This document shows positions 10,526-12,914 of a stretch of 46,691 nucleotides of DNA, piece by piece. The stretch comes from a virus (Duplodnaviria > Caudoviricetes): positions 1 to 46,691 of the IMG/VR virus record IMGVR_UViG_3300020445_000005, one strand, 5' to 3'. Position numbers and translations under genes: made by a program. The notes beneath the pieces were generated by a model, which searched no databases, was not told where the DNA came from, and saw nothing but the letters and a program-made list of their open reading frames with translations. Each line of letters starts with the position of its first letter. Positions within the stretch are counted from its first letter, which is position 1.

Positions 10526-11692
10526 ATGTCAGAACTACTAGAAAGTCGCTGGCAGGATACCAAAACTGCTCTTTTAGAAGGCCTTAATGGCAACAAAAAA
10601 GCTGTAATGGCAAGTACTCTAGAAAACACACGCAAGTGGTTGAATGAGACTGCAACAGCTGGTTCTACAAGCGCCGGTAATGTAGCAACTCTAAATAGAG
10701 TTATCCTACCAGTAATCAGAAGGGTCATGCCTACTGTAATAGCCAACGAATTAGTTGGTGTACAGCCTATGACAGGACCAGTGGGTCAAATCCACACATT
10801 AAGAGTACGTTACGCAGATTCATCTGATGGTAACGAAGTTGGTGAAGAAGCATTATCACCATTTAAGATCGCGGCGGCATATTCAGGTAACGCCACTGAC
10901 GCAACACCAAAAGGTGGAGCAACAGCGGCACTTGAAGGTCAAGCAGGTAAGAGATTATCTATCCAGATCTTAAAGCAAACTGTCGAAGCAAAAACTAGAA
11001 AGCTATCAGCTAGATGGACTTTTGAAGCGGCACAAGATGCTCAAGCACAGCAAGGCATCGATATTGAAGCAGAAATTATGGCGGCATTAGCCCAAGAAAT
11101 TACTGCTGAGATCGATCAAGAAGTATTAGCTTCTTTAAGAGCTTTAGCTGGAACGCAAAACCAACAAGCATACGACCAGAACGCTGTAAGCGGTACTGCA
11201 ACATTCGTAGGTGATGAACACGCGGCTTTGGCTGTGATGATCAACCGTGTTGCTAACAACATCGCACAGAGAACTAGACGTGGTGCTGGTAACTATGCTG
11301 TGGTATCACCACACGCATTAACTATCCTACAATCTGCAACAACTTCAGCGTTCGCAAGAACTACTGAAGGTGCATTTGAGGCTCCTACAAATACTAAAAT
11401 GGTTGGAACATTAAATTCAGCTATGAAAGTATATGTAGATTCATATGCCACTGATGCAACAGCAGTATTAGTTGGATACAAAGGTTCAAGTGAATCAGAC
11501 GCACCTGCGTTCTACTGCCCTTACATTCCTTTAATGTCAAGTGGCGTAGTACTAGATCCGTCTAGCTTTGAACCAGTAGTAAGTTTCATGACTAGATACG
11601 GATATGTTGAGTTAAACAACACAGCATCTTCACTAGGTAATGCGGCTGACTACTTAGGTACAGTTACTATTGCGAACGTAACTTTTAGCTAA
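10526..11692 (+). CDS. g23: Major capsid protein (T4 gp23 family)
   Basis: Motifs IRRVMPT.IA.ELVGVQPMTGP.GQI..LR, VEAKTRKL.A.WT.E.AQD, EI.AEID.E, IA.RTRRGAGN, GYKGS.E.DA..FYCPYIPL, FMTRYG. Confidence 0.96.
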   Translation: MSELLESRWQDTKTALLEGLNGNKKAVMASTLENTRKWLNETATAGSTSAGNVATLNRVILPVIRRVMPTVIANELVGVQPMTGPVGQIHTLRVRYADSSDGNEVGEEALSPFKIAAAYSGNATDATPKGGATAALEGQAGKRLSIQILKQTVEAKTRKLSARWTFEAAQDAQAQQGIDIEAEIMAALAQEITAEIDQEVLASLRALAGTQNQQAYDQNAVSGTATFVGDEHAALAVMINRVANNIAQRTRRGAGNYAVVSPHALTILQSATTSAFARTTEGAFEAPTNTKMVGTLNSAMKVYVDSYATDATAVLVGYKGSSESDAPAFYCPYIPLMSSGVVLDPSSFEPVVSFMTRYGYVELNNTASSLGNAADYLGTVTIANVTFS

Positions 11693-11723
11693 TCCATAGG
11701 GTTAGTTACTGAGTAACAACTTT

Positions 11724-11753
11724 AGATAGGCCCTTCGGGGCCTATCTTTTTTT
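11724..11753 (+). terminator. Rho-independent terminator after the capsid gene
   Basis: AGATAGGCCC-TTCG-GGGCCTATCT followed by a T run. Confidence 0.92.
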
Positions 11754-11758
11754 ATGGC

Positions 11759-11764
11759 TAAATA
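11759..11764 (+). promoter_or_regulatory. Late promoter core TAAATA upstream of the riboswitch
   Basis: Directly after the terminator and about 12 nt before riboswitch P1. Confidence 0.6.
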
Positions 11765-11774
11765 CTAGTACAAA

Positions 11775-11821
11775 ATCGTTCATCCTATCTAGGACGGAAG
11801 TAGCATAATGCGAAGGAACGC
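11775..11821 (+). ncRNA. Glutamine riboswitch aptamer (glnA RNA motif, glutamine-I class)
   Basis: P1 CGTTC/GAACG, P2 TCCT-ATCT-AGGA, linker CGGA, E-loop AGTA...GAA flanking P3 GCA-TAA-TGC. This matches the glnA-motif layout CGUUC...GGAAGUA...GAAGGAACGC as I recall it. Confidence 0.85.
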
Positions 11822-11848
11822 ACTCAAACTTTAACAGGGGAGGGTGTT

Positions 11849-12046
11849 ATGAACAGATTCGATCATTTACATAAACAGTACCGTGAGCAAAAACTGAGAG
11901 CTCGTAAAGAACGCATATTAGCGAACAGCAGAGATGTTGTTGAGGTTAATGGCAATGGTACTTCTGGATATCGTATCAAACACGGTGAAAACAAAGATCG
12001 TGTTGCCGGTCATTTAACGGTTGATCATCCAAATAAGAAAATATAA
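11849..12046 (+). CDS. Small basic protein (65 aa) downstream of the glutamine riboswitch
   Basis: GGAGG RBS; Arg/Lys-rich N-terminal helix. Confidence 0.75.
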   Translation: MNRFDHLHKQYREQKLRARKERILANSRDVVEVNGNGTSGYRIKHGENKDRVAGHLTVDHPNKKI

Positions 12047-12086: not shown

Positions 12087-12115
12087 TTGATTATTTGAAA
12101 AAGAGGTGTTATATT
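12087..12115 (+). promoter_or_regulatory. Sigma70-type promoter
   Basis: TTGATT (12087-12092), 17-nt spacer, TGn-extended TATATT (12110-12115), with an AT-rich upstream tract. Confidence 0.65.
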
Positions 12116-12120
12116 AGTAA

Positions 12121-12338
12121 TATAAGCATTAGGAGAGTAATTAACTCTTAATTATAGTGCAAGGAAGAGCCCTTTACCAGAAGGGGCGAACTTGACTGTC
12201 CAGGGGTGGTACCCAGGGTTTGTAGTAGAAATACGCAGATTCACATCGCATTCACTAGCGGGGATAGGTTGTACGTATTAGAATGGTATTCCGGTACGTG
12301 CTTGTAGGTGTAACCAAGTCCTACCTATTTTGCTTATA
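12121..12338 (+). ncRNA. Unidentified structured RNA, ~218 nt
   Basis: The ends pair (TATAAGCA / TGCTTATA). It contains several internal hairpins, is GC-richer than its flanks, starts at the expected TSS of the sigma70 promoter, and has no credible ORF. Confidence 0.6.
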
Positions 12339-12367: not shown

Positions 12368-12467
12368 TAAATACTTGTGTCTATAGAGCGAGCCGCATTA
12401 AAAGGATTTTAACGGCGGACTTATGGGGACAGAACCCCGTAGACCTAGAACGTCAAAGGAGAAACAA
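12368..12467 (+). promoter_or_regulatory. Late promoter core plus structured 5' leader
   Basis: TAAATA at 12368-12373; stems GTCTAT/GTAGAC, CCGC..TTAAAA/TTTTAA..GCGG and GGGG-ACAGAA-CCCC precede the AAGGAG RBS. Confidence 0.5.
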
Positions 12468-12914
12468 ATGGGAAGACCAATTAATAAAAGATTTTTCGGA
12501 ACACCTACAGCAGGTGGAAACGAAATAAAAGTAGACTTTCATGATGGCTCAGCTGTTACTGAAGGTTATATCGTTAAACAATTAGGATCAAAAAAGTTCC
12601 GTGTTAAAGAAATCGGTGGCTCAACAGAGTACGATCGTTTTTTAACTACAGGTAAATTAGCTTCTGCACTTACAGGTACAGAAATGGCTATTACTGTAAA
12701 AGGTGACGACAACGAAACTTATCAAATTGAAAAGATTGCAGGTAGAAAAGCTACTGTGATTGCACCAGATGGTACAGGTTCAAATGCACTATCAGGAACA
12801 TCATTATCTTGGACATTTACAGCATCTGGTTCAGATGGAGCGGCACAGGTTGAAGAAGCTGGTGACGATGACACTAAAGCAGGTACTGATGATGACGATT
12901 TCGCAAATGCGTAA
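12468..12914 (+). CDS. Hypothetical virion-associated protein (148 aa, MGRPINKRFFG...)
   Basis: The AAGGAG RBS precedes the ATG at 12468 rather than 12423. It has its own late promoter and a downstream UUCG hairpin. Confidence 0.7.
   Translation: MGRPINKRFFGTPTAGGNEIKVDFHDGSAVTEGYIVKQLGSKKFRVKEIGGSTEYDRFLTTGKLASALTGTEMAITVKGDDNETYQIEKIAGRKATVIAPDGTGSNALSGTSLSWTFTASGSDGAAQVEEAGDDDTKAGTDDDDFANA

Follow-up and report, generated by a model that had tools for sequence, protein, structure and literature searches.

The window, by which we mean the whole 46.7-kb stretch of DNA analysed here, is a fragment of structural genes from a T4-like phage, with a completeness of about 15%. Its g23-type major capsid protein has 67–71% identity to those of phages with genomes of 285–470 kb (e.g. 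Phosso, GAP32 and PA5oct). In order 3′ of the g23 stop (11692) lie a terminator, a TAAATA box, an aptamer, a Shine-Dalgarno (SD) sequence and a 65-codon open reading frame, as described in an earlier note made from the sequence alone. The features, all on the plus strand, are as follows.

10526..11692, +, g23-type major capsid protein gene, 388 aa, separately terminated (Pfam Gp23, E 1.7e-99)
11724..11755, +, intrinsic terminator closing the g23 transcript (hairpin 11724–11747, 10-bp stem, T-run)
11759..11764, +, TAAATA, T4-type late promoter-like site (from sequence; enriched before ORFs)
11775..11824, +, glutamine-I (glnA motif) aptamer (RF01739, full-length model match, model positions 1–53)
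11777–81/11816–20, +, aptamer stem P1
11783–86/11791–94, +, aptamer stem P2, with E-loop strands between the stems
11803–05/11809–11, +, aptamer stem P3
11821..11825, +, anti-SD strand of the conserved OFF helix, pairing with 11842–11846
11829..11839, +, weak inner stem (11829–32 with 11836–39) overlapping the SD on its 5′ side (folding model)
11839..11851, +, SD GGAGG (11839–43), spacer and AUG (11849) (from sequence; SD columns conserved in the leader alignment)
11849..12046, +, 65-aa basic protein, phage copy of a small-protein family of SAR11 (phrog_32989, E 6.6e-7)

There are several reasons for assigning the aptamer to the glnA motif (first described in PMC2864571), as the earlier note had done. 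First, it scores 59.5 bits against the RF01739 gathering score of 35 (E 9.8e-11) and is the sole gathering-level match within the window. Second, it forms the three-stem junction of this class with a conserved E-loop, and P2 and P3 covary (99.9% paired, 111 compensatory, i.e. two-sided, cells, equalled in 0 of 500 shuffles); the invariance of P1 is partly imposed by our own search patterns. Third, it occupies a 5′ leader, judged by the inferred transcript start, with a platform spanning the linchpin C and the ribosome binding site (RBS). Folding of the whole leader is no better than that of shuffled sequences (z −0.06 to −0.84), which is to be expected where a junction relies on tertiary contacts. 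The glutamine-II riboswitch (RF01704) was considered and rejected, its 22.2 bits falling below the gathering score of 33. Comparative material came from an exact-pattern scan of 16 of the 64 parts of a viral collection, which gave 119 aptamer loci (39 with flanks of 300 nt only), and from a protein-profile scan of the collection, which gave 409 stretches, the best 80 of which were kept. The leader set holds 125 distinct sequences, 102 of them aligned after dropping 19 with YRG-type ORFs and four that were mis-cut at the 5′ end or tandem. Tandem glutamine aptamers precede small ORFs at eight of the phage loci, and are also found at six loci in SAR116, beta- and gammaproteobacterial genomes.

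The TAAATA box resembles a late-type promoter core, in agreement with the late-promoter link drawn previously. Such boxes number 24 on the plus strand of the window versus 12 on the minus strand, and 17 of the 24 are followed within 110 nt by the start of an ORF (by our own list of ORF starts). This enrichment of the core fits the T4-type late promoter, which places a TATAAATA-like box a short distance 5′ of late genes and whose consensus is named in the methods of PMC9004378. Among 96 distinct phage aptamer loci TAAATA is near P1 in 47 and not near it in 47, with two too short to judge; the spacing to P1 is 5–7 nt in 43 of the 47 and 12 nt in the window. Where loci were chosen by protein family, 46 of 47 distinct aptamers have TAAATA within 30 nt upstream. 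The simplest reading of these sequences is that a late promoter would start a separate transcript headed by the aptamer. RNA-library contigs exactly matching g23 end at 11712–11733 (four runs from two studies), no DNA run bridges that end, and one exact contig lies over the ORF (11892–12031), with the aptamer itself uncovered; strand, level and timing cannot be read from these contigs, and their ends near the terminator and the ORF contig are weak hints.

The pairing that would close the RBS is conserved, though in a register other than the one first described. The earlier note had paired 11817–11825 with 11840–11848, the 3′ strand of P1 being exchanged between the aptamer and the RBS. Eight of its nine positions do form standard pairs, but their conservation is at chance level: across relatives 80.5% of cells are paired versus 81.5% in shuffles, with seven two-sided cells and 499 of 500 shuffles as good. 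Sliding the pairing by +2 restores the signal. The resulting helix, C11821–C11825/G11842–G11846, is paired in 99.4% of 504 cells with 38 compensatory cells and 0 of 500 shuffles as good, and it outscores every slid control register. Kinship among the sequences inflates such covariation counts, and both registers were scored on the same rows. An anchor-based count gives 522 of 525 core pairs for the OFF helix versus 670 of 945 for the earlier register, in the 105 of 107 sequences that could be anchored; two of the five pairs are fixed by the anchoring itself. The translational ON-type platform is retained in this shifted form, and covariation gives no support to strand exchange of P1.

This OFF helix begins at the linchpin C just after P1, is compatible with an intact P1 and can stack on it. 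Klahn et al. 2018 report a G23–C60 pair, taken from Ren et al. (PMC6212724), and in the model for gifB given there the linchpin C and the bases following it are postulated to pair with the RBS until glutamine binds. By analogy C11821 would be the equivalent of the linchpin C60. Because the conserved helix is shifted by 2 nt, starts after P1 and coexists with it, the switch most likely uses this known linchpin mechanism rather than strand exchange. A late transcript would start just after TAAATA; without glutamine, C11821–C11825 would pair with G11842–G11846 and hide the SD while P1 can persist; with glutamine bound, C11821 would be pulled into the linchpin pair with an E-loop G, the OFF helix would melt and the SD would be freed. 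On the strength of the conserved pairings we regard it as very probable that the cassette works as a glutamine-ON translational switch, and the comparison gives type-1 glutamine riboswitches an OFF helix backed by covariation.

Folding energies are compatible with such a switch. The ligand-free combination of P1, P2, P3 and OFF helix (with the inner stem) is at −11.7 kcal/mol versus −6.8 for the open ON fold, and the earlier register with P2 and P3 is at −9.7; the inner stem contributes about −1.4 kcal/mol with a pair probability of 0.06–0.12. Folding of the window sequence does not separate the two registers (pair probabilities 0.25–0.30 versus 0.24–0.29) and favors a third helix between the 5′ strand of P1 and the AUG region (0.44–0.77), with P1 at no more than 0.01. 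This outer helix, which takes in the AUG and codon 2, was rejected as the conserved OFF pairing (84.6% paired, zero two-sided changes), and is possibly an extra OFF state.

The earlier note also placed the switch behind the capsid gene as a nitrogen checkpoint. Same-strand g23 does precede 33 of the 119 phage aptamer loci, 22 within about 110 nt and three behind a distant g23, but here a terminator stands between them, and among 80 g23 relatives (66 with at least 600 nt of downstream sequence) the aptamer is found in three. It is in none of the four relatives at 95% identity, two of which have short flanks. The post-g23 slot has TAAATA in 52 of the 66, ahead of varied genes. These distributions show that the post-g23 site is a variable late-gene slot and no g23 control element. 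The association of aptamer with g23 is loose and that of aptamer with ORF far tighter: of 77 family genes whose flanks are long enough, 73 have the aptamer directly upstream (a count that includes duplicates, 13 of the 19 profile seed rows having been drawn from aptamer loci), and most family members sit away from g23. The cassette is retained among phages with 97–99% identical capsid proteins, and its occurrence among close phage relatives is patchy. ORF alleles at five other phage loci are 65–66% identical to 11849–12046, with near-identical leaders and capsid proteins more than 99% identical.

The 65-aa protein is basic (pI 10.3, net charge +7) and belongs to a family of 136 cluster representatives with a mean pI of 9.9–10.8. 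It consists of an N-terminal helix followed by a conserved N-x-x-G-T-S-G-Y motif, and the AF2 model places the helix at residues 5–27 with a less certain tail (pLDDT 72.7). Changes in the ORF across 10 relatives are mainly synonymous and at third positions. Sequence searches of Pfam, NCBIfam and the PDB gave no match of note, and tblastn of the ORF against annotated phages gave zero matches. Foldseek and VIA-align reach a best Z of 2.8, within noise for a query model this small, and the ESM Atlas matches are hypothetical viral clusters only, all below 0.9. Phage copies retain the conserved motif of the family and, in a tree of 62 rows and 64 columns that is poorly resolved and gives neither donor nor direction, are mixed among the SAR11 copies. 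Family copies in two bacterial MAGs lie amid phage-like genes (gp25 in one of them), and are probably on binned phage contigs.

Among the Alphaproteobacteria searched, the cellular relatives of this protein are concentrated in SAR11. With a phage-built profile the family is found in 226 of 301 Pelagibacterales genomes (one unpublished genome counted), nearly always in single copy, and in one of 301 genomes of an Alphaproteobacteria-wide sample. At 35 of 60 hand-picked SAR11 loci the gene lies tail-to-tail with a 468-aa type I glnA, with a stop-to-stop gap of 4–19 nt in 32 of these. Adjacency differs by batch, from none of the best 20 matches to 15 of the second 20 and all of the third 20, and thus none of the 20 SAR11 copies closest to the phage protein adjoins glnA. 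The glnA-adjacent copies also come directly after the suf/iscA cluster, in the same orientation. At 18 loci the leader of such a copy has repeated GCATA/TGCA boxes instead of a riboswitch; these may be a transcription-factor site, the factor being at a guess NtrX. In strain HTCC1062, locus 0746 lies between hesB and glnA and is equated with the family by this position only; in PMC3870248 its array signal is low (1.4–2.55), with no clear nitrogen response and no protein row. The range of the gene family in SAR11 suggests a SAR11 host for the phage, which we rate as somewhat favored, although the Methylophilales phage Melnitz infects OM43 yet carries SAR11-like genes.

The riboswitch itself is rare in these genomes, RF01739 being present in one of 150 from Pelagibacterales. 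A tRNA lies about 1.2 kb from that copy, which may thus be phage-derived. A genome scan for the aptamer together with the platform yields 74 cellular loci, including SAR86, SAR116 and cyanobacteria. In two Pelagibacteraceae genomes the aptamer and platform stand before this same 65-aa family among housekeeping genes, and in cyanobacteria they stand ahead of DUF4278 and an IF7-like protein, in a search that required the platform. At several SAR86 loci the same combination precedes the gene for a DUF4177-like protein of 71 aa, with an amino-acid permease nearby.

The closest known system is the gifB (IF17) leader of Synechocystis, which has an RF01739 aptamer, a postulated linchpin–RBS platform and a small basic protein as its target. 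In contrast, the switch in the window is phage-borne and behind TAAATA, and its product has relatives in Pelagibacterales and is without DUF4278 or detectable homology to IF7 or IF17: none of 82 family members matches IF7A (NF052599) or DUF4278 at E 0.1, and hhalign to an IF7-like protein gives a probability of 2.3%. There are nonetheless several likenesses to these inactivating factors (gifA/gifB), namely a length of about 65 aa, basic character, a helical N-terminus, an ON response at high glutamine (predicted for the phage gene) and organisms lacking glutamine synthetase adenylylation. Inactivating factors are described as small, basic and electrostatic in action (review PMC6316151), and the 65-aa protein is likewise small, basic and rich in Arg and Lys.

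Both the RNA class and its occurrence in phages are already known; what is new is the target protein of the switch. Phage glutamine riboswitches have been published for Melnitz, Mosig and AG-345-P14 (Buchholz et al. 2022, PMC9004378), and glnA RNA RF01739 is listed for the T4-like cyanophage S-CREM1 (PMC9964418); a study of pelagimyophages (PMC7029224) reports none found. S-CREM1 differs in being a cyanophage, and several such loci in our viral set precede YRG-type (DUF4278-like) ORFs. The aptamer of Melnitz, a marine T4-like phage, is 84% identical to that of the window over 76 nt including the platform. The Melnitz riboswitch is said to control ssrA (PMC9004378). Since the aptamer there (MZ577097.1, L200:1501–1668) is at the 3′ end of ssrA and is followed by an SD and a 32-codon ORF on the plus strand that is unannotated and has the same anti-SD helix (the annotated CDS at this place being on the minus strand), control of ssrA looks unlikely from the arrangement. 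The 32-codon peptide is of a different family from the 65-aa protein of the window.

We propose, tentatively and with a little less than even confidence, that the window holds a self-contained phage cassette in which the glutamine-I riboswitch turns on a SAR11-type 65-residue protein late in infection, and that this protein is a predicted inhibitor of the host glutamine synthetase. The identity of the target is the weaker part. The tail-to-tail arrangement with glnA, the absence of GlnE (0 of 151 Pelagibacterales genomes) and the glutamine-ON logic point to glutamine synthetase, which by analogy we hold possible rather than probable. The basic protein would then bind and inactivate type I glutamine synthetase as IF7 and IF17 do in cyanobacteria, and the phage would keep or take over nitrogen-assimilation feedback in a host without GlnE and PII. 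Pelagibacter is reported to lack GlnB, GlnD, GlnK and NtrB/C (PMC3870248), and with GlnE missing as well, the literature covered offers no explanation of how SAR11 turns down its glutamine synthetase. A candidate for this brake is a small protein whose gene adjoins glnA and whose phage copies are placed behind a glutamine riboswitch; if so, phages would carry an inhibitor of host nitrogen assimilation.

A serious competitor, which we consider a substantial minority possibility, keeps the glutamine-ON switch and gives the protein another target, for example a transporter of ammonium or amino acids, NtrY/NtrX, Fe-S assembly or the ribosome. It accords with the lack of IF7/IF17 homology, with the position of SAR11 copies behind iscA/hesB on the same strand, with the 25 of 60 fetched SAR11 copies that are away from glnA, and with the presence of the same switch before small proteins of several unrelated families, some of them DUF4177-like and some hydrophobic. 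The same three observations that point to glutamine synthetase (35 of 60 tail-to-tail, no GlnE, ON at high glutamine) weigh against it. A further reading, in which the protein is a decoy that binds glutamine synthetase and displaces the host inhibitor so that assimilation stays on when nitrogen is plentiful, is in our view unlikely. Nitrogen flux late in infection would presumably benefit the phage, and an ORF that differs by 35% between phages with 99.5% identical capsid proteins would fit a conflict, but the phage copies keep the conserved family motif, the poorly resolved tree mixes them with SAR11 copies, and the same gene with the same switch is also found in cellular contexts.

The capsid-coupled checkpoint of the earlier note, extended here to a control of assembly or lysis timing by P1 strand exchange, is quite improbable: the helix can form, at the energy given above, and g23 stands upstream of a minority of aptamer loci, but the pairing is without covariation, the post-g23 slot carries TAAATA before varied genes and seldom the aptamer, and the protein family is a host gene family. 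A neutral cassette, taken recently from a host and without function in the phage, would agree with the patchiness among close relatives and is very improbable in view of the phage-type promoter at fixed spacing, the compensatory RNA changes, the synonymous bias in the ORF and the 409 viral stretches that encode the family.

A second leader precedes members of the same family. At 20 of the 60 SAR11 loci the gene is preceded, in place of the aptamer, by a different compact RNA with two covarying loop-pairings (91.8% paired, 18 two-sided cells, 0 of 500 shuffles, 14 rows), which has no match in Rfam at E 1 and was not found in the window. This double-pseudoknot leader, which from its sequence is a candidate for an unclassified riboswitch, is in 18 of 150 Pelagibacterales genomes and in seven viral stretches, all before the 65-aa family and three behind TATAAATA. 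It may be unrelated to a 166-nt candidate RNA at HIMB5 RS05825 (PMC6429828). In four SAR11 genomes without a match to the 65-aa family the leader precedes a second, unrelated 48-aa family. Members of this second family (44–51 aa, basic, with an SRPR motif) occur under either leader, the phage members at ten loci sitting behind the glutamine aptamer. That two leaders interchange before two peptide families suggests a common nitrogen signal and perhaps also a common target.

Taken jointly, the 65-aa family could be the missing SAR11 brake on glutamine synthetase, a non-homologous analogue of IF7/IF17 captured by marine phages and placed behind a late promoter and glutamine riboswitch, with the double-pseudoknot leader as a further riboswitch class for glutamine or nitrogen status; this combination is speculative, and somewhat unlikely as a whole. 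In the literature covered, outside which most subscription journals fall, we found no paper describing a SAR11 or phage glutamine synthetase inhibitor, SAR11_0746 or the double-pseudoknot leader, and no printed account of the glnA link.

Two further RNA-like elements follow on the plus strand of the window. A manA-like RNA at 12129–12334 (45.1 bits versus a gathering score of 55.2, E 3e-10) lies behind a sigma70-like site (12095–12123), is conserved behind g23 in many relatives and is covered by exact RNA-library contigs in four runs. A freshwater-2-like leader at 12397–12470 (36 bits versus 49.9) lies behind a TAAATA at 12368 and before the next gene, and is likewise conserved in many g23 relatives.
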